DNA of 64,000 nucleotides from Candidatus Latescibacterota bacterium (GCA_965203175.1 OZ241867.1:3232001-3296000), one strand, 5' to 3'; positions 29,446 through 39,679 are shown, numbered from the stretch's first letter. Notes: generated from the sequence alone by a model not told the origin. Translations and numbers: made by a program.

Positions 29446-32400
29446 ATGAATAACTTAGGGCGATATCTAGCGATCTGGTTGGGGCTGCTGCAAACGCCTT
29501 GCTACGGCGAGGTGGCTGCTTTGCGCGCCACCATCGAAGCCTTAAGCGCTGTCGAATCGCGCTTGGCTGGCTATCCCGGTGCTGAAGCGGGTGCCGCGTT
29601 GGTGGAACGCGAATTGGTCGCGGCTGGCGTCGAAGCGGTGCGGCGCGACTCGTTTGCCGTGGTGGTGCCCGTAGATCGCGGTGCTCACCTGCGCTTGGAG
29701 CAGAGTGGGGAAGAGGTGCCGCTGTGGGGCTTGTGGCCGAATCTGGCGCGGACGGTCACGCTGCCGCCAGAGGGCCTGCGAGCGCCGATGATCTACGGCG
29801 GCCGGGGTGAGTGGCGCGACTTCGACGGCCACGCCATGGACGGGCGCATTGTCCTGCTGGAATTCGATAGTTGGAACCACTGGCTGCGCGCCGCGTCGCT
29901 GGGTGCCCGGGCCGTGGTATTTATCGCGCCCGAGCAGACCAACCGCCACCAAGCCGCGGCCAAATACGCCCACGTGCCGCTCGACATCCCCCGCTTCTGG
30001 ATCGAGCGAGAAGCGGGCCTCGTGTTGCGCCAGCGCCTGCAGGTTGGAGAGCTGTTGGTACACTTGCAGGGCCGCATGGACTGGCAACAGCGACCGGCGT
30101 GGAATATCTGGGGCGTAATCCCTGGTGCCGATCCCGAGTTGGCCGCCGAGCGCGTCGCCATCGAGGCGTACTACGACGGGATTTCCGTGGTGCCGGGCCG
30201 GGCACCTAGCGCTGAGACTGCCTGCGGCATTGCCGCTTTATTGGAATTGGCCCGCCATCTAGTAGTCCATCCACCAGCGCGTACCATCATTCTAGTGGCG
30301 ACCTCGGCTCACTTTCAAGGTCGCCAGGGCATGGCCGAATTTCTCGCTCGCCACGCCCGGCCTTTGGAGGAACCGCTCCACATAGACCTGTTCATCGGTC
30401 TGGACCTATCGAGTCGCACCGATCAAGTCGGCATCTGGAACAATACTGCTAGGCCCGAATTGCGGCGCTTTTTCGCCCCATTCGGTCGCCGCTTCAGCGG
30501 CTACGCCAGCACCCTAGACTCGGCGGTAGTCGGCAGTCTGGTCAACGGCATCACCCCCATCAAGGGCTTGGACTGGTCGGCGTACATGCCCGGCAGCATC
30601 GCTGCCAACAGCCGGCTCGCTCTCGAAGGCGGCTTGATCTCCTTGGGCCTGATTACCGTGAACGACGCCCGCCTGCAGATTGATTCGCCGCTGGACCAGC
30701 CAGACGCGGTCAACTACGACAATCTGGCGCGCCAAGTCGCCTTGATAAACGGCGTGCTGCAACAGGCCCTAAACGATCCGCAACTGTTGGAGGAGAAAGC
30801 GGCCTTTGGGCCGGTATTGCAGGATCGCTTGCGCGACTTGCGCCTCAAGGTGCGGACCTTTCCGCGCCGCTCGCAAACGCCGGACCGGCCAGTGGCCGAC
30901 GCGGTGGCCGTAGTGCGACGGCAATGGGCGACTGCTGGCAAAGCCGTCAAAGGGGTGCGCACGGCCCAAGTCCATCTCAGCGACGACGAGGGGGAGTTGC
31001 TCATAACGGGGCTGCCGCAGGCCCAATACCGCACCAACGTGTACGTCTTGGACCCGCAAGACGGAACCATTACCTATGCCGCTGATCTGAGCAAAAGGGC
31101 GGAAGGATTCCACGGGAAACCGCTGCCCGACGGCTCCATTCCCATCACCGTCCAGTGGGCACTCACCGAGAAATCGGTGGTGGTTTTCCCCTGCCTGAGC
31201 CGCCCTTTTTACGGCCTCATTAATCCGCGCTCGCTCAATTTCTTAAGCGGCATCACTGTGGTCAATCGATACGACACTGCCCCGCGCCAATATGGCTACG
31301 CGCTGGGTAGCGGCCTCGACGAAGCGGCTGGGATGGTATTCGGGCCGCAGGCCGCCGATCCGCAAAACCGCATCAAAATACTGGCGGGCCGGCAACTGTT
31401 GTTACTCAACAACGGTATCCCCGACAGCCGACCCAGTGGCGAGGGTTTTGATCTGGCTGAAGAGCGACTAGTGCCGACGCTGTTGCAGGCCGCTTGGGAT
31501 ATGTGGCGCCTCGACGAGGATCGGCTGCAGACCATGCGCGACCACGCCATTGAAAACCACTACCTGCAGCGCCTGCACCAGCGCACTGCCCAAGTCCTCG
31601 AAGCCGCCCAAGAGGCCGCCCAGCGCAAAGAGTGGAGCCGCTACGTGGCCCATCTGCGGGTGGCGCTGGGATTGGAAAACCAGGTCTATCCCGAGGCCAT
31701 GGCGACTTTAAACGACGTCATAAAGGGCATGGTATTCTTTTTGGCGCTGCTCATTCCCGCGGCCTTTTTGGGCGAGCGCCTGCTGTTGGGGGCAACGCAT
31801 ATTACGCGACAGTTAGCTGGTTTTGGCGCGTTATTGGCCGTAGTCTGGCTCGCGATTTCTCAGGTGCATCCCGCCTTTGCCATTGCCCATCCGCTGGTCA
31901 TCCTGCTGGCCTTTGCCATCATGGCTATGGCCAGTCTCGTCCTCGTCCTCATCAGCAGTCGCTTCAACAGTTTTATGAAGGAACGCGGCGACCGGATCCA
32001 CCACGTTGAGATGCGGCGTTTTAGCGTCGCCCATGCCGCGTTCATGCTGGGCATATCCAACATGCGGCGGCGCAAACTGCGCACCGGCTTGACCTTGACG
32101 ACTCTGGTCCTGCTGACGTTTACGGTGCTTTCCTTTGCCTCGTACGAGAGCCGGGCACGCTTTATCTCGCTGCCTCTCGAACACGAGGGAGGGTACGAGG
32201 GCATCTTGGTCCGCAACCGGGCTTGGAATCCCTTGGGCCAGCCCACGTTGGATTACATCCGCTCCCACTTTGCCGCAGTCGGCCCGATCAGTTCGCGCAA
32301 CTGGTTCATTTTGCAGGAGGACAAAAAGACGTATCTGGAAGCCGCAGCTGGCCGGCAATTGGTGCGGACCTATGGCTTGCTCGGCCTAAATCCCGAGGAA

Positions 32401-33801
32401 ACCGACATAACAGGCGTTGACCAAGCTCTGACGGCTGGCCGCTTTTTCACCGCCGCGGCTGAGGCTAGTTGTCTGCTGCCTTTGCCGATGGCTGAAGCCT
32501 TGGGCTTGGATGCCGGCGACTTGGGACGCGCGCAAGTGCGGGTGATGGGTAAAACACTGACCGTGGTGGGCTTGTTCGATCCAGAGGTCTTCAACGACAT
32601 CCGCGATCTAGACGACGGGCCGCTGACGCCGGTGGACTTTGAGTTATCCCAAACCGCCGGCAGCACCTTTCAGATCAACCAGAGCGCGGCCACGACAGCT
32701 ACCGCCTCCCAGTATCGCCCATACGTGCACATACTGCCGGACAACGTGCTGATTGCGCCCTATGAGATCGTCCGCCAAATGGGGGGGCGGCTGCGCTCGG
32801 TGGCCGTCGCCTTTGACCGGGAGCGATTGGACGCCGGGGCGGGCCAAGCGCTGTTGGAAGACTTCCTGCTGCGAGTGGCCGTCAGCCTGTTCGTCGGCTT
32901 GCGGCAGGACGGGACTTCGACCATTGGCGTCTGGGCCTATTCGTCGATTGGGGCGACGGCGATAAAGGGTCTAGGAGTGCTGATCGTACCCATGCTTATC
33001 GCGGCCTTCATCGTCCTCAATACTATGCTCGGGACGGTGTACGAGCGCCTCAAGGACATTGGCATCTACGCGGCTGTAGGGCTGGCCCCGTCCCACATCG
33101 CCCTGCTGTTCATTGCCGAAGCCTGTGCCTATGCGGTTCTGGGCATTACGCTGGGGTACTTGGGCGGCCAAGGGACGGGTTTGGTGCTGAACTACTGGGA
33201 CATGCTGAGTGGACTCAATTTGAACTATTCGTCTCTAGCGGCTGTGTTTTCTGCGCTCATCGTCATGGGGGTGGTCTTGCTGTCTACGGTGTATCCGGCT
33301 CGGGTGGCCGCTCGCACTGCTGTGCCCGATCTAGTGCGGCGCTGGCAGCCCGAGCCGCCAGTCGGGGCCGAGTGGGAATTCCGCTTCCCCTTCTTGGTGT
33401 CGGCGGCCGAGGCCAAGGGTCTGTGCGGCTTTTTGTTGGATTACCTAGCGTCGTACGGCGAGGCGTCGATTGGCTCGTTTTACACCGAGGGAACCTTGCT
33501 TCAGTCCTTTGCCACGCCCCAAGGCACGGCCTATGCCCTCGAAGCCAAGGTGTGGCTGGCACCGCTGGATTTGGGCGTGAGCCAGCACGCAGTACTGTGC
33601 ATCTGCCCCGAGGAGCAAGCCAATATTTACGGCCTAGTGTTCTATCTGCGCTGCCTCAGCGGCGACAACGATTCGTGGCGTCGGGCCAACCGCAGCTTTT
33701 TGCAGGCGATCCGCAAAGAGTTGCTGATCTGGAATACGCTCAAAGCAGCGGAGCGGAGTACTTTTCAGCAGCGGGCGGAGGAACAACTTCAGCGGCAATA
33801 A
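29446..33801 (+). CDS. Large membrane protein: M28-peptidase-like extracytoplasmic region plus FtsX/MacB-like permease
   Basis: Signal peptide; PA/M28-like region (NIWGVIPG, EAYYDG, GIAALLELAR, IGLDLSS); TM bundle; NMRRRKLRTGLT; VYERLKDIGIYAAVGL (FtsX). Confidence 0.8.
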   Translation: MNNLGRYLAIWLGLLQTPCYGEVAALRATIEALSAVESRLAGYPGAEAGAALVERELVAAGVEAVRRDSFAVVVPVDRGAHLRLEQSGEEVPLWGLWPNLARTVTLPPEGLRAPMIYGGRGEWRDFDGHAMDGRIVLLEFDSWNHWLRAASLGARAVVFIAPEQTNRHQAAAKYAHVPLDIPRFWIEREAGLVLRQRLQVGELLVHLQGRMDWQQRPAWNIWGVIPGADPELAAERVAIEAYYDGISVVPGRAPSAETACGIAALLELARHLVVHPPARTIILVATSAHFQGRQGMAEFLARHARPLEEPLHIDLFIGLDLSSRTDQVGIWNNTARPELRRFFAPFGRRFSGYASTLDSAVVGSLVNGITPIKGLDWSAYMPGSIAANSRLALEGGLISLGLITVNDARLQIDSPLDQPDAVNYDNLARQVALINGVLQQALNDPQLLEEKAAFGPVLQDRLRDLRLKVRTFPRRSQTPDRPVADAVAVVRRQWATAGKAVKGVRTAQVHLSDDEGELLITGLPQAQYRTNVYVLDPQDGTITYAADLSKRAEGFHGKPLPDGSIPITVQWALTEKSVVVFPCLSRPFYGLINPRSLNFLSGITVVNRYDTAPRQYGYALGSGLDEAAGMVFGPQAADPQNRIKILAGRQLLLLNNGIPDSRPSGEGFDLAEERLVPTLLQAAWDMWRLDEDRLQTMRDHAIENHYLQRLHQRTAQVLEAAQEAAQRKEWSRYVAHLRVALGLENQVYPEAMATLNDVIKGMVFFLALLIPAAFLGERLLLGATHITRQLAGFGALLAVVWLAISQVHPAFAIAHPLVILLAFAIMAMASLVLVLISSRFNSFMKERGDRIHHVEMRRFSVAHAAFMLGISNMRRRKLRTGLTLTTLVLLTFTVLSFASYESRARFISLPLEHEGGYEGILVRNRAWNPLGQPTLDYIRSHFAAVGPISSRNWFILQEDKKTYLEAAAGRQLVRTYGLLGLNPEETDITGVDQALTAGRFFTAAAEASCLLPLPMAEALGLDAGDLGRAQVRVMGKTLTVVGLFDPEVFNDIRDLDDGPLTPVDFELSQTAGSTFQINQSAATTATASQYRPYVHILPDNVLIAPYEIVRQMGGRLRSVAVAFDRERLDAGAGQALLEDFLLRVAVSLFVGLRQDGTSTIGVWAYSSIGATAIKGLGVLIVPMLIAAFIVLNTMLGTVYERLKDIGIYAAVGLAPSHIALLFIAEACAYAVLGITLGYLGGQGTGLVLNYWDMLSGLNLNYSSLAAVFSALIVMGVVLLSTVYPARVAARTAVPDLVRRWQPEPPVGAEWEFRFPFLVSAAEAKGLCGFLLDYLASYGEASIGSFYTEGTLLQSFATPQGTAYALEAKVWLAPLDLGVSQHAVLCICPEEQANIYGLVFYLRCLSGDNDSWRRANRSFLQAIRKELLIWNTLKAAERSTFQQRAEEQLQRQ

Positions 33802-33954
33802 GCTCGTATAGCAACCCATTATCGCTACCGGCGCAGACCTTTCTCTCACAACATTCTATTGCACAGTCTGCGGAAAAAGGGTTGATTGATTTACTCCTGC
33901 CCCCCTTTCCTGCAAGTAAGGGAACCGTCGCTTAGAGCAAAAAAGGGTGGAGTA

Positions 33955-36900
33955 ATGAACGACGCGAGTGAATCCGCAAAAATCCCGAGTCAGAAAAAAT
34001 CCTTTGATCACATCCTCGGACAGCACTACACGGTCTTCGACGGGCTGGCTGGGATGCACGTGGAAGACATCTACCAAGACCGGCGCGGCCTGCTCTGGAT
34101 CGCCACGGCCGACGGCGGCGTAAGCCGGTTCGACGGGGTGCATTTCGATACTTTTGGCCTGTCGAACGGGATGCCCCATCTCACGGTAATGACGATTGCC
34201 GAGGACCAAGACGGGCGGCTGCTCTTCGGGACGCTCGGCGGCGGGCTGGCCGCGTATAACGGACGTAGCTTGCAGGTGTACACCACCGAGCATGGGCTAC
34301 CGTCCAACAAGATCCTGAGCTTGCAACCGCAGACCGATGGCTCGATGCGGGTGCTGACCGACGCAGGAGTCGGCCGGTTTGCCGACGGGCAGTGCGTAGA
34401 GTGCGTGACAGACATTGAGGGTCAGCCGCTAGGCGCGGTGTACGACATAGCGACTGACGCGGCGGGAACGACGTGGCTGGCGACGCGAGAGCGGGGGGTA
34501 ATCAGCCTTGATGGTCGCCACCTGAGCATGGACTTCAGCGCGGAAAACGGCGCGATGCAGTGGCCTTGGAAATTCGCCCAGGGCACCTCCGGCCCGCTTT
34601 GGATCGCCTTTCGCTATGTTGGTACCGAACCCGTTATAGGCTGCTATGATCCAGTTAGCCAACAGCTCGAACTCATCAAGGCGGGCGATCGGGTCGAAGG
34701 GGCGGATATCGTACAGCACGGCACGCGGCATGTGCGCTTGGACGATAGAGGCTGGCTGTGGATGACCCGCCGAGGCGTCCTGGTGTACGACGGGCAGGCT
34801 TGGCATCCATTCTACACCCGCTTGCCGGATAGCCACTTTTCGGATACGCGGCTGACGTACGAGGACCGCGAGGGGAATATCTGGGTGGGGCTTTGGGGCG
34901 GCGGGCTGGTTTTTTGCGATCCGGTCAGTGTCCAGTTATACACCGAAGCCGACGGCCTACCCGACTGCGAGGTCCGGTGTCTGGACGAAGACCGCGAAGG
35001 TCGGCTATGGATCGGTACGATGGGGGGCCTAGCCTACCGCGAAGCCGACCGGATTCGCCCGGTGGCTCCAAGGCGGACGGTCTCGACTCTGGTGGTAGAT
35101 CGACAGGGGCAGGTCTGGAGCGGAGGGCCCACAGGACAGGTGTTCAGGGAGACGGGTGGAGAGACCCAAGCGATTGAGGTAGCCGAGACAACCCACGCCG
35201 AAGGAATCGCCGGGCTATGGGAAGACCAAGCAGGAAACCTAAGCGTCTGCACGTCCAAAGGGCGATTGGGACGGATCGCAGAAGATCGCTTTATGGAGCG
35301 CAAGGAGTGGTTGCCCGGCGATTGCACCGTCGCGTTGCAGGACGGTGCGGATGCCTTCTGGATCGGCCTCAGTAGGAAAACGTCGGCCCTATGCTATTGT
35401 AAAGATGGCCATTTCCACACGCCTGATATGGCCGGCTTGGAAGCCATCGCGGATGTGAGTGCTTTGTGCGAGTATCAGGGCGTACTCTGGGTGGGGACAG
35501 AAAACTACGGCCTGTTCGCCTTGGATTACGCCTCTGGGGAGATCCGCCGGTTTACGGTGGATCAGGGGGCACTGTCCGTCAATGGCATTTTGGCGCTGGT
35601 AAAAGACCCGCAGGGCGGTATGTGGATTGGGACTAGCGGCGGAGGCGTACTGAAGTACGATGGCCAGACCTTCCAGTGCATCCGGCTGGGGCCGGGCGCG
35701 TTGGAGAATATCGTCGAGGCCATCCTGCGCGATAGCCAAGGCCAGTTGTGGTTTGGGACGCGGGCCGGTCTCATTGCCTATCAGCCTGGGGAGACGCCGC
35801 CCCTCATCCGAATTCGCCAAGTCGTGGCCGGGCGAACTTGGGACGAACCCCAAGCCGTGTCCTGCCCGGAGAGCACCCCCGAGATTCAGTTCCACTTCCA
35901 AGGCATCAGTTTCAGGAGCGGGGCCGAGCAAATGCGTTACAGCCATCGGCTCGTCGGCTACGGCCCGGCCGCAGAGTGGAGCGCGTTCACGCTCGCCAAT
36001 AACGAGACGTACAACGGCGTGCCAGCCGGCCCATTTCGCTTTGAGGTGCGGACCATGGACCGGGATGGCTTGGTGTCAGAAGTAGCCAGCGTAGATGTGC
36101 GGGTAGTCCCCGACGCCCAAAGCGCCCACATCCGGCTCCTAGAGCAAATGCTGCGGATCCCGGGTCGGGAATTTCTCAGCCAGAGCCCGGCCATGGCCCA
36201 GCTCTTGGAGCAGGTCGCCCGGATGGCCGAGACCGATATGACCGTGCTGGTGCTGGGCGAGACCGGCGTGGGCAAGGGAGTGCTGGCGCAGATCATCCAC
36301 AGTCTGAGTCCGCGGCGAGAGCACCCCTTTGTCGCCGTCAATTGCGGGGCCTTGCCCTCCGGGTTAGTCGAAAGCGAGTTGTTCGGCCACGAGAAGGGCG
36401 CCTTTACCAGCGCGGTGAACCGGCAGATCGGCTATTTTGAACGGGCGAATGGCGGCACTTTGTTCCTCGATGAAATCGGCGACTTGTCCCCGGACGCTCA
36501 ACGGGTGCTGCTCCAAATCTTGGAGGAGGGCTACCTGACCCGCATCGGCGGCGAGAAGTCCATTCCGGTGGATGTGCGGGTGGTTGCGGCAACCAACCGC
36601 GATATGAAAAAGGCCATCCGGGAGGGGACGTTTCGGGATGATCTATTCTATCGCTTGGACGTGTTCACCGTGACGCTGCCGCCGCTGCGGGACCGCCGGG
36701 AGGACATCCCGGTCTTGGCGGCGCATTTTGCGAGCCGATATGCCCAAAACCTGCGGCAGCCGGTGCCGGTTCTGAGCGACGAGGTGATAGCGCACTTGCA
36801 AGGGTATTCTTGGCCGGGGAACGTGCGCGAGCTGGAGCACGTGATCCAGCGGGCGGTGGTGCTGTGCGAGGATGATGTCATTCAGGTGGCGGATGCGCCG

Positions 36901-37101
36901 CTTGAGCCGCTGACCTCTGCTGCGCCGATTGCAGGGGCTGAGATCGAGGACGAGAAACAGCAAATAGTGGCGGCCCTGCAAGCGACCAACTGGAGGATTT
37001 ATGGCGAGCGGGGCGCAGCGCACTTGTTGGGTATGCACCCGGAGCGGCTGCGTTCCCGCATGCGCGTGTACGGGTTGCAACGACCCAAGAAATCCTCTTA
37101 A
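33955..37101 (+). CDS. Sigma54 enhancer-binding protein with N-terminal two-component-regulator beta-propellers and a Y_Y_Y domain
   Basis: Repeats DGLA..VEDIYQDRRGLLWIAT, EDREGNIWVG, DSQGQLWFGT; Y_Y_Y-like YSHRL...FEVR; GETGVGK, ESELFGHEKGAFTSA, LFLDEIG, WPGNVREL; C-terminal HTH. ATG at 33955 follows GGAG. Confidence 0.92.
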   Translation: MNDASESAKIPSQKKSFDHILGQHYTVFDGLAGMHVEDIYQDRRGLLWIATADGGVSRFDGVHFDTFGLSNGMPHLTVMTIAEDQDGRLLFGTLGGGLAAYNGRSLQVYTTEHGLPSNKILSLQPQTDGSMRVLTDAGVGRFADGQCVECVTDIEGQPLGAVYDIATDAAGTTWLATRERGVISLDGRHLSMDFSAENGAMQWPWKFAQGTSGPLWIAFRYVGTEPVIGCYDPVSQQLELIKAGDRVEGADIVQHGTRHVRLDDRGWLWMTRRGVLVYDGQAWHPFYTRLPDSHFSDTRLTYEDREGNIWVGLWGGGLVFCDPVSVQLYTEADGLPDCEVRCLDEDREGRLWIGTMGGLAYREADRIRPVAPRRTVSTLVVDRQGQVWSGGPTGQVFRETGGETQAIEVAETTHAEGIAGLWEDQAGNLSVCTSKGRLGRIAEDRFMERKEWLPGDCTVALQDGADAFWIGLSRKTSALCYCKDGHFHTPDMAGLEAIADVSALCEYQGVLWVGTENYGLFALDYASGEIRRFTVDQGALSVNGILALVKDPQGGMWIGTSGGGVLKYDGQTFQCIRLGPGALENIVEAILRDSQGQLWFGTRAGLIAYQPGETPPLIRIRQVVAGRTWDEPQAVSCPESTPEIQFHFQGISFRSGAEQMRYSHRLVGYGPAAEWSAFTLANNETYNGVPAGPFRFEVRTMDRDGLVSEVASVDVRVVPDAQSAHIRLLEQMLRIPGREFLSQSPAMAQLLEQVARMAETDMTVLVLGETGVGKGVLAQIIHSLSPRREHPFVAVNCGALPSGLVESELFGHEKGAFTSAVNRQIGYFERANGGTLFLDEIGDLSPDAQRVLLQILEEGYLTRIGGEKSIPVDVRVVAATNRDMKKAIREGTFRDDLFYRLDVFTVTLPPLRDRREDIPVLAAHFASRYAQNLRQPVPVLSDEVIAHLQGYSWPGNVRELEHVIQRAVVLCEDDVIQVADAPLEPLTSAAPIAGAEIEDEKQQIVAALQATNWRIYGERGAAHLLGMHPERLRSRMRVYGLQRPKKSS

Positions 37102-37142
37102 CGGGCAAAGGAACCGCAGCCGACGGGCCGGGGTTGTTGATG

Positions 37143-37195
37143 AAAAATCGTATAAAAGTCGTATAAAAATCGTATTTATACGGCAAAAGTCGTAT
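37143..37195. repeat. 11-bp tandem repeats AAAA(A/G)TCGTAT, candidate enhancer (UAS)
   Basis: Units at 37143, 37154, 37165 and 37185, plus an inverted half-site (CGTAT-TT-ATACG) at 37171-37182. Confidence 0.75.
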
Positions 37196-37286
37196 AAATC
37201 CACGACAAAGATCGCGGAAAGTCTTGCGCCGATGGCGAGACGGTGCCTCATAGAAATCCCCATCCCATAATTTTAAGTATCATGTT

Positions 37287-37322
37287 TTTCAATCCTTTAG
37301 GTACGTCCTAAAGGATTTTTTT
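37287..37322 (+). promoter_or_regulatory. IHF-like site overlapping an 11-bp hairpin with T-tract (possible terminator of the EBP gene)
   Basis: TTTCAATCCTTTA resembles WATCAANNNNTTR. AATCCTTTAGG-TACGT-CCTAAAGGATT is followed by Ts. Lies between the UAS repeats and the sigma54 promoter. Confidence 0.5.
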
Positions 37323-37339
37323 GTGTATGGCCTGACCGT

Positions 37340-37355
37340 TGGCACACAATTTGCA
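37340..37355 (+). promoter_or_regulatory. Sigma54 (-24/-12) promoter
   Basis: TGGCAC-ACAAT-TTGCA is a perfect TGGCAC-N5-TTGCW consensus, about 240 bp downstream of a sigma54 EBP gene. Confidence 0.85.
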
Positions 37356-37526
37356 TGCTCTATATCGTCGTTGAGGGTGAAGCCGATGCAGAAGAAAGGA
37401 GGCGATTTCAAACTGACACAGCACTAGGTGGGGGCCTACTCCCCTGGGCCTCCCCACCGTCCGTTAGGGCTGCTGCGGCCCTACCGATGATAGTTCCTTT
37501 AACCCGATAACCCGAGGAGGGTTGCT

Positions 37527-37655
37527 ATGTTGTTACCACATCACTCGAAGGACTGGATAGGGGCCGTGTGCTGGATCTTGGGCTACGTCGGCCTCGTTTT
37601 GCTATACCACTTGGTGGCAGGTGGTACATTAATTTCAGGTTCAATAACGAGATAA
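37527..37655 (+). CDS. Small hydrophobic peptide (42 aa), possibly 3'-disrupted
   Basis: GAGGAGG RBS then MLLPHHSKDWIGAVCWILGYVGLVLLYHLVAGGTLISGSITR; one TM-like stretch; overlaps the 3' end of the convergent gene. Confidence 0.45.
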   Translation: MLLPHHSKDWIGAVCWILGYVGLVLLYHLVAGGTLISGSITR

Positions 37656-39679
37656 CTAACGCTCCTTGCTTCCATCTCAATTGGAATCTCAATGTTGTAA
37701 TATCGGTCGATTTTGTAGCATTTGGATTCTCCTTCTTTTTCACGAACCTTGGCAATTTCAGACAACCCGGTATAATAGAGTGGTAATTTCAAAGTCATCC
37801 GTTGTACCGTTCGCGTAGGATTATAGAGCATCGCGAGTCCACAGGGATTGATTTGCGCGTTGGCATGGAGGACACAATCAATAGAGCGGCCATCTGGGCG
37901 GCGCACGTGAATGAGGTCAGAATCCAATATTGGGCGATACTTTTTGTAAAAGTCAACCCATTTCTTAACGATGGTTTTTGTCTGTTCAGTATCAAAAAGT
38001 CGAGGACCGCGATAGCACGCAATCACACCGCTGCCGAAGTTCTGTGCGAGATGTGATTCGTAGTCATCAAGGTGTTCACAAAGCGGCTCAAACGTTGCGG
38101 CTGCTCCGCCGCCGTGGTACTCCACCAACGGGACGAACATCCAACCCATACTGGGTGTCTTTTCATACGTGGCATCGTAGATATTCTGCCGGGCAATTAA
38201 AATTTGCCGCTCGCGGGGCAAGCTGAAGTTCGTTTCGCGATAGCCCATCCCACATTTGTTTGAACCGTTGAAGTAATACTGATCTGGCGAATTGATATAG
38301 ATACCGCGTTTTCGACATTCGTGGTAAAAATGAACGCACGCTTCCCACTGACGCAACTGCGAATCCGCTAAACCGTTATGATGCTCGTGCGTCGTTGCAG
38401 CACAGATGTCACCATGATACGGACCGTCAGTCTCTATGATATCCATTCCGGTTGCATCCATGAAATTCAGCACTCGTTGGAAATAACCATCTGCCCATCT
38501 GCTCGCAAGACAAGCACTCTGTCCAAACCTACTTCCGGGTTGCCCGGTGTCTGGGTCAACACAGTTGAAATCTTCACCCGCATTCCGCGAAGCACACATC
38601 AGTGTATAACCGCCGAGTTGAATACCTTTGTGGTGGGCATAATCGGTCAATTCTTTCATTGTGGTTATGTATTCCGGATCTTCGCTCTCAATATTGAATC
38701 CACTTCCAAAGGTCATAATCACCATTTCAAATCCGACTGCGGCGCACTGATCTATCGCTAAACGGACAGCATCTGGCTCGGCACTCCGAACGTGCATGAA
38801 AATTGGATTCTCCGTGACCTGTGGCGCGACCGTGCGATACATCTTGCGGCGTGCGAGTCCTTTTCGCTCACGCGAATCACTATCATGTAGAATCTCGAAG
38901 GTGCGGAAGCTCTTGAAGGTCTCACCCGGTTGAAGAAGGACTCCCGGACCGAGTGGATAGCGGCTTGTCATCAACAGTGGCATCTGATAGTTATAATCGA
39001 CTTGCGTCTTGTAATCTGCATCTGGTCCCCAGTGTGTCGTTTCCATTCCGCTGAAGGCATAATCGCTCTCGACATGTAGCCGATGCTTTTCCTGCTCGTT
39101 GACAGCAAGGATTTCACAGTTTAAGGCATCGAGTTGAATCGGTTCTTGACTCTCATTGTGAATAGTGATCCACTTGGACAGTGCTGGAATGCCTTGGTAT
39201 AATTCATAATGCGCGCATACCTGAAGGGAGTTAGCGGATGGCGGCGGTGAGAACACAACCGTCAGTTTCACACCTTCTGGTGGATGGACTGATGATGTCG
39301 TAGAACGCCTGTGTACCCACGGATAGCGGATTTCAGGTGTACCGACCCTATATTCGCGAAATTGAAATGCGTTCTCGTCACTGGTCAAATCCGCGATCCA
39401 ATCCGAATCAAGATAGGCGTAGTCGGGCTGTCCTTTCAAACCACCCACTTCATATTCGTTTCCGTTAATTGCAAGTACCGCCTCTGGTTTGATGGCGCGA
39501 AGAAGGGTATTACCGGTAATTTGATTGGTATAATCAACCGTTGCGAAATTAGGTGTGGTAGCGAATGTTCGGCGAATGAGTCCATTGTTGAGAATAAGTT
39601 GACTGTCCTTTTCTTCTACTAAAGCGGGTTGGCGAAAGGGCTGAACCAACCAATCATTTTGTTGTGATGTGTATTGCAT
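37583..39679 (-). CDS. Putative glycoside hydrolase (alpha-galactosidase/GH36-like TIM barrel)
   Basis: APQVTENPIFMH, AIDQCAAVGFEMVIMTFGSG, IETDGPY, PSMGWMFVPL, YRGPRLFD. Visibly more AT-rich than its flanks. The family call is from pattern recall. Confidence 0.55.
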   Translation of the reverse strand: MQYTSQQNDWLVQPFRQPALVEEKDSQLILNNGLIRRTFATTPNFATVDYTNQITGNTLLRAIKPEAVLAINGNEYEVGGLKGQPDYAYLDSDWIADLTSDENAFQFREYRVGTPEIRYPWVHRRSTTSSVHPPEGVKLTVVFSPPPSANSLQVCAHYELYQGIPALSKWITIHNESQEPIQLDALNCEILAVNEQEKHRLHVESDYAFSGMETTHWGPDADYKTQVDYNYQMPLLMTSRYPLGPGVLLQPGETFKSFRTFEILHDSDSRERKGLARRKMYRTVAPQVTENPIFMHVRSAEPDAVRLAIDQCAAVGFEMVIMTFGSGFNIESEDPEYITTMKELTDYAHHKGIQLGGYTLMCASRNAGEDFNCVDPDTGQPGSRFGQSACLASRWADGYFQRVLNFMDATGMDIIETDGPYHGDICAATTHEHHNGLADSQLRQWEACVHFYHECRKRGIYINSPDQYYFNGSNKCGMGYRETNFSLPRERQILIARQNIYDATYEKTPSMGWMFVPLVEYHGGGAAATFEPLCEHLDDYESHLAQNFGSGVIACYRGPRLFDTEQTKTIVKKWVDFYKKYRPILDSDLIHVRRPDGRSIDCVLHANAQINPCGLAMLYNPTRTVQRMTLKLPLYYTGLSEIAKVREKEGESKCYKIDRYYNIEIPIEMEARSVSYLVIEPEINVPPATKWYSKTRPT

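Follow-up and report, generated by a model that had tools for sequence, protein, structure and literature searches.

Among the sigma-54 activators that are paired with small RNAs are GlrR, with GlmY, and LuxO, with the Qrr RNAs, and in the case of CbrB the gene crcZ lies directly downstream of cbrB. RNAs of the CrcZ, GlmY and Qrr type are non-coding, end at a terminator, carry repeated protein-binding motifs and act via Hfq/Crc or RapZ. CbrB is reported to bind and activate both the crcZ and the crcY promoters (PMC6296734), and GlmY to be a small RNA made from a sigma-54 promoter with an enhancer-binding protein (PMC7073468). A similar arrangement had been proposed for a 64,000-nucleotide (nt) stretch of a genome from an uncultured, sponge-associated lineage (Candidatus Latescibacterota bacterium, GCA_965203175.1 OZ241867.1:3232001-3296000; the whole stretch is termed the window here), in which a preliminary description saw a sigma-54 promoter and its sensor-activator devoted to a short structured RNA or a leader peptide. 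The analysis reported here indicates that the locus is very probably a truncated member of a genus-wide, multi-copy family of activator/sigma-54 cassettes. What looked like an activator for a structured RNA would belong to an ordinary cassette of activator, promoter and operon that has been truncated in this copy; the result is in the main a correction.

CbrB driving crcZ and crcY in Pseudomonas is the closest known analogue of the idea of a dedicated RNA output. That system shares with the window an enhancer-binding protein, several subsites, a sigma-54 promoter and a short transcript in place of an operon; the defining features of a small RNA were looked for at the window locus and were not found. 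Where RNAs of the CrcZ type are as described above, the window has an open reading frame (ORF) led by a Shine-Dalgarno (SD) box, no conserved terminator and no repeated motif, and no Hfq or CsrA gene was found in its genome.

Two further groups of systems bear comparison. Small single-helix membrane proteins are known to be made under regulators, as are MgrB (PhoP) and PspG (PspF with sigma-54). The 42-amino-acid (aa) ORF downstream of the window promoter (ORF42) resembles these in encoding fewer than 50 aa with one hydrophobic helix behind an SD box and a signal-controlled promoter, but it differs in having no family similarity, in being lineage-restricted and predicted only, and in lying in sequence that appears to replace an older operon. 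The hybrid two-component systems of Bacteroides use Reg_prop/Y_Y_Y sensors that adjoin the loci they control, and like the cassettes described here they combine these sensor domain types with many paralogues per genome, each adjoining its own secreted-protein targets. They carry kinase, receiver and AraC domains, whereas the window sensor is fused to a sigma-54 AAA+ domain and HTH_8 and has no predicted membrane helix. None of the ten papers listed in a literature search joined Latescibacterota, sponge and sigma-54; the cassette family is not claimed to be unpublished.

The cassette family and its copy in the window

The window's own genome (G000) is a single contig of 6.58 Mb and 93% complete. 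By blastn it holds 13 cassette copies of one architecture, in the order activator 3' end (..YGLRRPKK), private repeats, CTTGCGCCGATGGC, AT-rich block, terminator hairpin with its T-run, and GGCAC-N5-TGC. The segment 37185-37406 of the window matches 12 places in this genome and up to 16 in relatives. Across the 41 genomes searched (the own genome, 24 others of the genus and 16 from other families) cassette matches were obtained in 20, comprising 19 of the 24 other genus members and none of the 16 outsiders. A GGCAC-N5/6-TGC promoter is borne by 12 of the 13 own-genome copies, and in 11 of these 12 the -12 element is followed, at a distance of 20-112 nt, by the start of an ORF of 302-1086 aa; the genes starting there encode signal peptides. 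The window copy is the one promoter-bearing copy without a long downstream gene. Example copies in this genome are at C1:2250751, 3383534, 1366545, 4984108 and 1064886, and the window's own spans 37102-37356.

The same pattern extends to the genus. Nine loci from relatives encode activators of 1044-1067 aa that are 60-63% identical to that of the window, except for the one in the sister species G010, at 91%. When 11 proteins encoded downstream in relatives were scanned, eight carried FG-GAP_3 with FlgD_ig, and the other three were a PD40/DPPIV_N propeller, a peptidase A24 and a 93-aa protein without a family match; FG-GAP genes follow the leaders of relatives wherever the fetched flank was long enough. 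Sister cassettes are like the window in activator architecture (60-70% aa identity), repeat layout, conserved blocks, terminator and promoter, and differ from it in that the window sequence is unrelated beyond about +55. To judge by these predicted features, soluble Reg_prop/Y_Y_Y sigma-54 activators have expanded here into a family with private site variants, near-identical promoters and secreted-protein targets. The family is uncharacterised and may let these symbionts sense and answer host or polymer cues, and its invariant promoter architecture provides a handle for predicting the regulon across the whole genus. The cassette features of the window are as follows.

33886..37101, plus strand: gene for a sigma-54 enhancer-binding protein with Reg_prop repeats, Y_Y_Y sensor, AAA+ sigma-54 interaction domain and HTH_8
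37145..37207, plus strand: putative activator-binding sites (UAS), with TCGTATAAA three times (37148, 37159, 37190) and the near-palindrome CGTATTTATACG at 37171-37182
37223..37290, plus strand: conserved cassette blocks, CTTGCGCCGATGGC at 37223-37236 and an AT-rich block ending in ..AAGTATCATGTTTTTC
37291..37324, plus strand: the activator gene's intrinsic terminator, formed by AATCCTTTAGG-N5-CCTAAAGGATT and a T-run after it
37340-37355, plus strand: sigma-54 (-24/-12) promoter TGGCACacaatTTGCA, an exact TGGCAC-N5-TTGCA pattern with the predicted +1 near 37366

The sigma-54 promoter of the preliminary description, with its predicted +1 at about 37366, was borne out. The strict pattern TGGCAC-N5-TTGCW, for which 0.10 matches are expected, occurs once in the window (one or more matches arose in 8 of 100 shuffles) and 15 times in the whole genome, and the promoter, which also lies in a conserved multi-copy cassette, stands above chance. 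Its TGGCAC and TTGC elements are identical in G010 and G041, the two sister species that carry the orthologous locus, and the substitutions in the promoter block, which overall is only 77-91% identical to them, fall outside these elements. The genome encodes rpoN (Sigma54_DBD match, 1.3e-60). As a prediction from these features, this is a convincing sigma-54 promoter.

The neighbouring sensor-activator, which had been put at 1000 aa, was likewise recovered, as a 1048-aa gene with Pfam matches to Sigma54_activat (1.9e-67), Reg_prop (4.6e-37), AAA_lid_14, HTH_8 and Y_Y_Y. Its ORF opens at TTG 33886; the earliest ATG, at 33955, gives the 1048-aa product (MNDASES..) and is probably the true start, since alignments to relatives start near residue 39. 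No membrane helix is predicted in the activator (highest Kyte-Doolittle mean over 19 residues, 1.32). The AAA+ motifs are intact, with a GAFTSA loop and the Walker B sequence LFLDEI, and match those of sister copies with intact targets. The sigma-54 contact loop (about residues 830-836 in the window activator) reads GAFTSA, not GAFTGA, in the window activator and in that of G010. GAFTSA is also present in the own-genome sister C1:1061493 and in one activator of G007, and it appears to be a natural variant of the family because both of these have normal target genes. In all, the genome holds 26 strong matches to sigma-54 activators, of which roughly a dozen belong to the long type.

At the UAS position every sister cassette has two or three repeats of TCG..CG form with a copy-specific centre. 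The activator would bind the window repeats, which are 96% identical in G010. A cluster of the window type was found nowhere else in the genome; there are two partial matches, neither of them near a promoter, and clusters of CGTATTTATACG/TCGTAT elsewhere were consequently dropped as trans targets. CGTAT/ATACG half-sites occur in four cassettes (C1:1357627; 1366492/1366513; 3383480/3383501; window 37170), with spacers of 2, 3, 5 and 5 nt, and half-site spacing may set specificity among the paralogous activators.

The blocks at 37223..37290 are kept in the 13 own-genome copies and in relatives, and the multi-copy match centres on them; an IHF-like DNA-bending site may lie in the AT-rich block. 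The terminator folds at -14.3 kcal/mol with z = -4.40 (1 of 200 shuffles equal; 200 shuffles were used for each fold test), and its stem arms co-vary among 36 copies (29 distinct) as AACCC/GGGTT, AATTC/GAATT, AAGCC/GGCTT and AATATTTT/AAAATATT. It is 94.5% identical to its counterpart in G010 and 100% to that in G041. Its predicted role is to shield the sigma-54 promoter from read-through of the activator gene.

The leader RNA, its micro-ORF and its hairpins

Downstream of the promoter the window carries the following elements, most of which had been taken as signs of a regulatory RNA.

37359..37406, plus strand: leader A, the 5' third that is left of a genus leader of ~140 nt, holding the micro-ORF start and an SD-like box
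37386-37427, plus strand: micro-ORF, ATG to TAG, 13 codons, MQKKGGDFKLTQH, read directly
37395-37405, plus strand: SD-like box AAAGGAGGCGA, read directly
37407..37526, plus strand: leader B, present only in G000, G010 and G041
37427-37458, plus strand: hairpin 1, GGTGGGG..CCCCACC, in leader B
37465-37483, plus strand: hairpin 2, TAGGGC..GCCCTA, in leader B
37514-37521, plus strand: SD box GAGGAGGG, within a small AACCC/GGGTT stem; the second GGAGG is 37516-37520

The origin of leader A can be traced in the relatives, where a leader of ~140 nt is shared by 19 cassettes of nine related genomes. It opens with ..GAAGGCGAGGCCGATGCGGAAGAAAGGAGG.. and ends at the SD box and ATG of a Cys-rich ORF with a signal peptide, mostly of 91-109 aa; 18 of the 19 leaders precede an ORF of 91-136 aa, and 6 of the 19 have the Cys-rich ORF joined in frame to the leader ATG. 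The ~93-aa Cys-rich protein matches no family of Pfam or NCBIfam. In the conserved leader an SD-like AAAGGAGG stands between the arms GCCGAU/AUCGGU, and CCAGUAC/GUACUGG forms a second stem (examples are L006:1659-1828, L007:1673-1842 and L008:1757-1926). The window and G010 align with the 19 related leaders up to AAAGGAGG and are unrelated beyond it, and in the alignment of own-genome cassettes the window's AAAGGAGG overlies the SD boxes of the sister copies. The SD-like box noted in the preliminary description is present, and it aligns with the SD boxes of sister copies.

Beyond this point nothing recognisable remains of the older downstream genes. No homologue of the ~93-aa protein was found in G000, and a tblastn comparison of 37340-37700 with all neighbouring and target proteins gave no pseudogene remnant, returning only the overlapping 698-aa gene and spurious frames of the shared leader. 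The DNA of leader B and ORF42 has no second copy in its own genome, and as it is unique there its interpretation as a repeat or REP element was ruled out. The preliminary description had itself allowed that, should relatives have a normal long gene at this place, the target was simply deleted here. Relatives and sister copies do largely have one (a long gene after 11 of the 12 own-genome promoters, an ORF of 91-136 aa after 18 of the 19 leaders), but simple deletion is not the whole story, because three species share the loss and conserve the activator, the activator's sites and the promoter.

The micro-ORF had suggested a leader-peptide attenuator, in which translation of the 13 codons controls the hairpins downstream. 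It is present in G000 and, with 15 codons after a 3-nt in-frame insertion, in G010, and its ATG is kept in 17 of the 19 related leaders. However, in G041 it reads ATG TAG, with the stop at codon 2, and the ATG is lost in the other two related leaders (G014a, G020a); the frame, end and length vary among relatives, in six of which (6/19) the frame runs into the 93-aa ORF. Neither hairpin is followed by a U-run and no structural gene lies downstream, and an attenuator at this locus is accordingly regarded as extremely improbable.

Both hairpins were found where they had been described, yet they do not make the leader a structured RNA. The 175-nt leader folds at -57.2 kcal/mol with z = +0.11, and 103 of 200 shuffles did as well, so no excess of structure is present. 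Taken alone, hairpin 1 has z = -1.42 (16/200 shuffles equal) and hairpin 2 reaches -14.2 kcal/mol with z = -2.78 (4/200 equal). In G010 hairpin 2 is destroyed by a 5-nt deletion (-5.9 kcal/mol, z 0.08); hairpin 1 is intact and invariant in all three species and so offers no covariation. RNAalifold on 17 related full-length leaders predicted 20 pairs, of which none showed a compensatory change. The Rfam scan, run at a permissive E, had no match at the gathering threshold and gave three sub-threshold matches, to eukaryotic snoRNA (E 1.5-7.6; 15-19 bits against thresholds of 45-70). With controls that scored, CsrA (PF02599) and Hfq (PF17209) each had no match in the single-contig, 93% complete genome. 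There is high confidence that the two hairpins, the SD-like box and the micro-ORF form no conserved structured RNA or leader peptide.

A non-coding output of ~270 nt could also take other forms, acting in trans as a small RNA or decoy through hairpin 1, or opposing the convergent gene as an antisense or collision transcript. No other transcribed part of the locus is as well conserved as leader B: its nucleotide distance (JC) is 0.03 to G041 and 0.09 to G010, compared with a synonymous distance (dS) of 0.11-0.14 in the neighbouring activator gene, and its identity is 97% to G041 and 91% to G010, leader A being 87% identical to the latter. Hairpin 1 persists in three species, one RNA-library contig having a 1-base insertion at 37445 inside it; there is no terminator between the promoter and the convergent gene; and CbrB, acting on the crcZ and crcY promoters, provides a precedent (PMC6296734). 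Set against these points are the fold statistics, the loss of hairpin 2 in G010, the lack of an Rfam family and of a CsrA or Hfq gene, and the change of the GGAGG of the SD-like box to GGAGA in G041. Moreover, the transcript bears a good SD box and ORF and has no defined 3' terminator, and, because G041 has a different convergent gene from G000/G010 next to an unaltered cassette, a specific antisense target is disfavoured. On balance a non-coding output seems improbable, though a good deal less so than an attenuator.

The small ORF and the output of the promoter

The second GGAGG noted downstream of the hairpins is present, but the preliminary description overlooked that an ATG follows 6 nt on and opens an ORF.

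37527..37655, plus strand: ORF42, MLLPHHSKDWIGAVCWILGYVGLVLLYHLVAGGTLISGSITR, 42 aa, a predicted single-helix small membrane peptide

A history that would join this ORF to the cassette starts from a complete set of parts, namely a soluble beta-propeller (Reg_prop/Y_Y_Y) sensor activator, copy-specific 3' repeats, a terminator and a -24/-12 promoter for genes of secreted proteins. In the ancestor of G000, G010 and G041 everything past the first ~50 nt of the leader was very probably replaced, so that the FG-GAP genes, the ~93-aa Cys-rich ORF and the remainder of the structured leader were lost. The promoter would now yield an RNA of at least ~270 nt, with a ~160-nt 5' leader and an SD-led ORF of 36-42 codons. 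That its present output is a short mRNA for a membrane peptide of 36-42 aa is a tentative proposal, held with a little less than even confidence. More doubtful, though still a serious possibility, is that the sensor-activator has been retained for this newly arisen peptide, or for the ~270-nt RNA bearing its ORF. The sequences show the cassette family, the truncation, an ORF that is intact in relatives, and a conserved activator, UAS and promoter core; we infer the firing of the promoter and the translation and usefulness of ORF42.

The ATG of ORF42 at 37527 lies 6 nt past a GAGGAGG box; G041 and G010 have the weaker boxes GGAGAGGG and AGAGGA, respectively. The predicted helix occupies residues 13-31 (Kyte-Doolittle mean 2.05). 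Both sister species have intact counterparts of 36 aa, so the frame is open at each of the three loci. No gap interrupts the alignment of the first 35 codons across them, while the 170-nt leader has undergone at least five indel events relative to G010. In a profile search of 1.84 billion protein representatives ORF42 matched just two clusters, whose members, taken from ENA, Logan and JGI assemblies, amount to 18 distinct sequences encoded on ~33 metagenome contigs. All 17 that were read have the same WIGAVCWI core, substitutions in the helix are conservative (S/G, V/A, L/I), the variation clusters at positions 4, 7, 9 and 32-36, and two variants have an in-frame insertion of four residues. 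A scan of GTDB genome contigs returned the G010 and G041 records only, a divergent 40-aa lineage (P0002) not being among them. The eight weak loci obtained by scanning JGI metagenome contigs with the ORF alignment (41-73%, over 15-32 residues) were judged to be chance helix matches and were not used. ORF42 has no family match in Pfam or NCBIfam.

Contigs from RNA libraries of two studies, one a coral metagenome, cover 37430-37627 (X1) and 37433-37597 (X8); they are unstranded and DNA carry-over is possible. They resemble the G010 and G041 variants, and their listed indels, at 37445 and 37513, both fall in the leader. Among four runs, none (0/4) had depth in 37313-37413 and three had none in 37111-37312, gaps in the contigs that are uninformative on the start of the transcript. 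The contigs are a weak hint of expression.

Several observations weigh against a peptide that is under selection. The ratio of non-synonymous to synonymous rates (dN/dS) of ORF42 is 0.26, 0.58 and 0.26 for the three species pairs, with 9-10 changes each, and a hand count over all three gives six synonymous and eight non-synonymous changes, which does not fall significantly below neutrality. At JC 0.10-0.11 (90-91% identity) the divergence of the ORF roughly equals that at synonymous sites in the activator gene, dS 0.11-0.14, and leader B is better conserved than the ORF. Two changes in G041, G12R and V14A, fall within the helix; the C-terminus is freely variable and was rewritten in G000 by a deletion. 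The genus search was significant in G010 and G041 only, with E of at least 0.19 in 14 other genomes, and the two clusters among 1.84 billion representatives include no relatives from beyond this narrow clade. The metagenome variants are gene calls, a kind of sample that broken copies would escape. No terminator 3' of ORF42 is common to the three species; the sole terminator-like hairpin downstream (37605-37626) lies inside ORF42 and is weaker in G010 and G041. Finally, the window activator is 3.5 times less constrained than the single sister compared (0.30 against 0.086).

These figures suggest the alternative of a functionless relic, in which the target operon was lost, the transcript is useless and ORF42 is a chance frame, with the activator acting elsewhere or decaying slowly. 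The activator has a dN/dS of 0.30 against G010 (197 substitutions, with no stops or frameshifts) and of 0.165 against the partial G041 copy (334 codons), compared with 0.086 in one sister activator with an intact target. This looser constraint fits a partial loss of function, as far as one paralogue can serve for comparison. The near-neutral nucleotide rate of ORF42, its non-significant dN/dS and its confinement to one narrow clade are as expected of a chance frame, and the DNA to its right has been freely rearranged, by a module insertion and a 104-nt deletion. The activator could meanwhile survive through sister promoters that share CGTAT/ATACG half-sites, or by forming mixed rings with its paralogues. 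Three other cassettes carry TCGTAT-N2-6-ATACG sites, their spacers being 3, 5 and 5 nt long and that of the window 2 nt, and the closest paralogue in G010 uses CGTAT-N3-ATACG. A useless output should, however, have let the UAS, the terminator and the -24/-12 core drift, and these are instead the best conserved parts (96%, 94.5-100% and unchanged, respectively); the window-type UAS cluster is absent elsewhere in the genome, and ORF42 has stayed open, with in-frame changes only, in three genomes and 17 variants. The regulatory hardware thus looks maintained, under relaxed constraint, and a relic is considered rather unlikely.

Whether as relic or as re-used module, the locus is a clean natural case of a sigma-54 sensing module that has outlived its operon, in which the fate of an orphan regulator and the possible birth of a micro-protein are testable. 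Were retention for the peptide or its RNA to hold, the locus would represent a datable re-use of a complete sigma-54 module for a lineage-specific micro-gene in an uncultured, sponge-associated lineage of Latescibacterota.

The convergent gene and neighbouring DNA

As had been described, no long plus-strand ORF occurs before the convergent gene, which was then called a hydrolase.

37583-39679, minus strand: convergent ORF of 698 aa, outside the cassette, its last ~16 codons from cassette-side DNA
37632..37633, no strand: junction, with the 698-aa module beginning on the right and left contexts that differ among species

The name hydrolase has as its sole basis a Pfam match to Glyco_hydro_36N at E 0.0085, below the cut-off, and NCBIfam gave none. 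The module (37633-39679) is 97-100% identical in DNA in G010, G022, G003 and G021 over the matched stretches, in differing left contexts. Against G010 the protein has 97.5% aa identity and a dS of 0.064, compared with 0.14-0.30 for its neighbours. The conserved part stops exactly at ..VIEPE, after which each genome adds its own final codons and stop; a native stop codon shared by all copies was dropped from consideration, G010 and G021 showing VIEPE followed by genome-specific tails. Taken together with its shifting surroundings, the gene looks recently mobile.

G041 lacks the 698-aa gene at this place, and the next gene there is a convergent orthologue of the window's PhyH/HEAT gene (94% aa identity); the promoter would therefore have faced a convergent gene before the module arrived. 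Within the genus, the window segment 37404-37635 is shared only with G010 (87%) and G041 (94%), and in three other genomes the match is limited to the final ~30 bases of that query, which lie in the 698-aa gene. Near 37632, G000 has lost ~104 nt that G010 retains between the small ORF and the 698-aa gene, and G041 has a similar spacer. The loss lengthens the small ORF from 36 to 42 aa and the convergent ORF from 687 to 698 aa, and it is because this deletion extended both that the two overlap by 73 nt on opposite strands (37583-37655).

On the other side of the cassette, an ORF of 1451 aa (29446-33801), on the same strand as the activator ORF and 84 nt upstream of it, has matches to an FtsX-like permease and peptidase M28.

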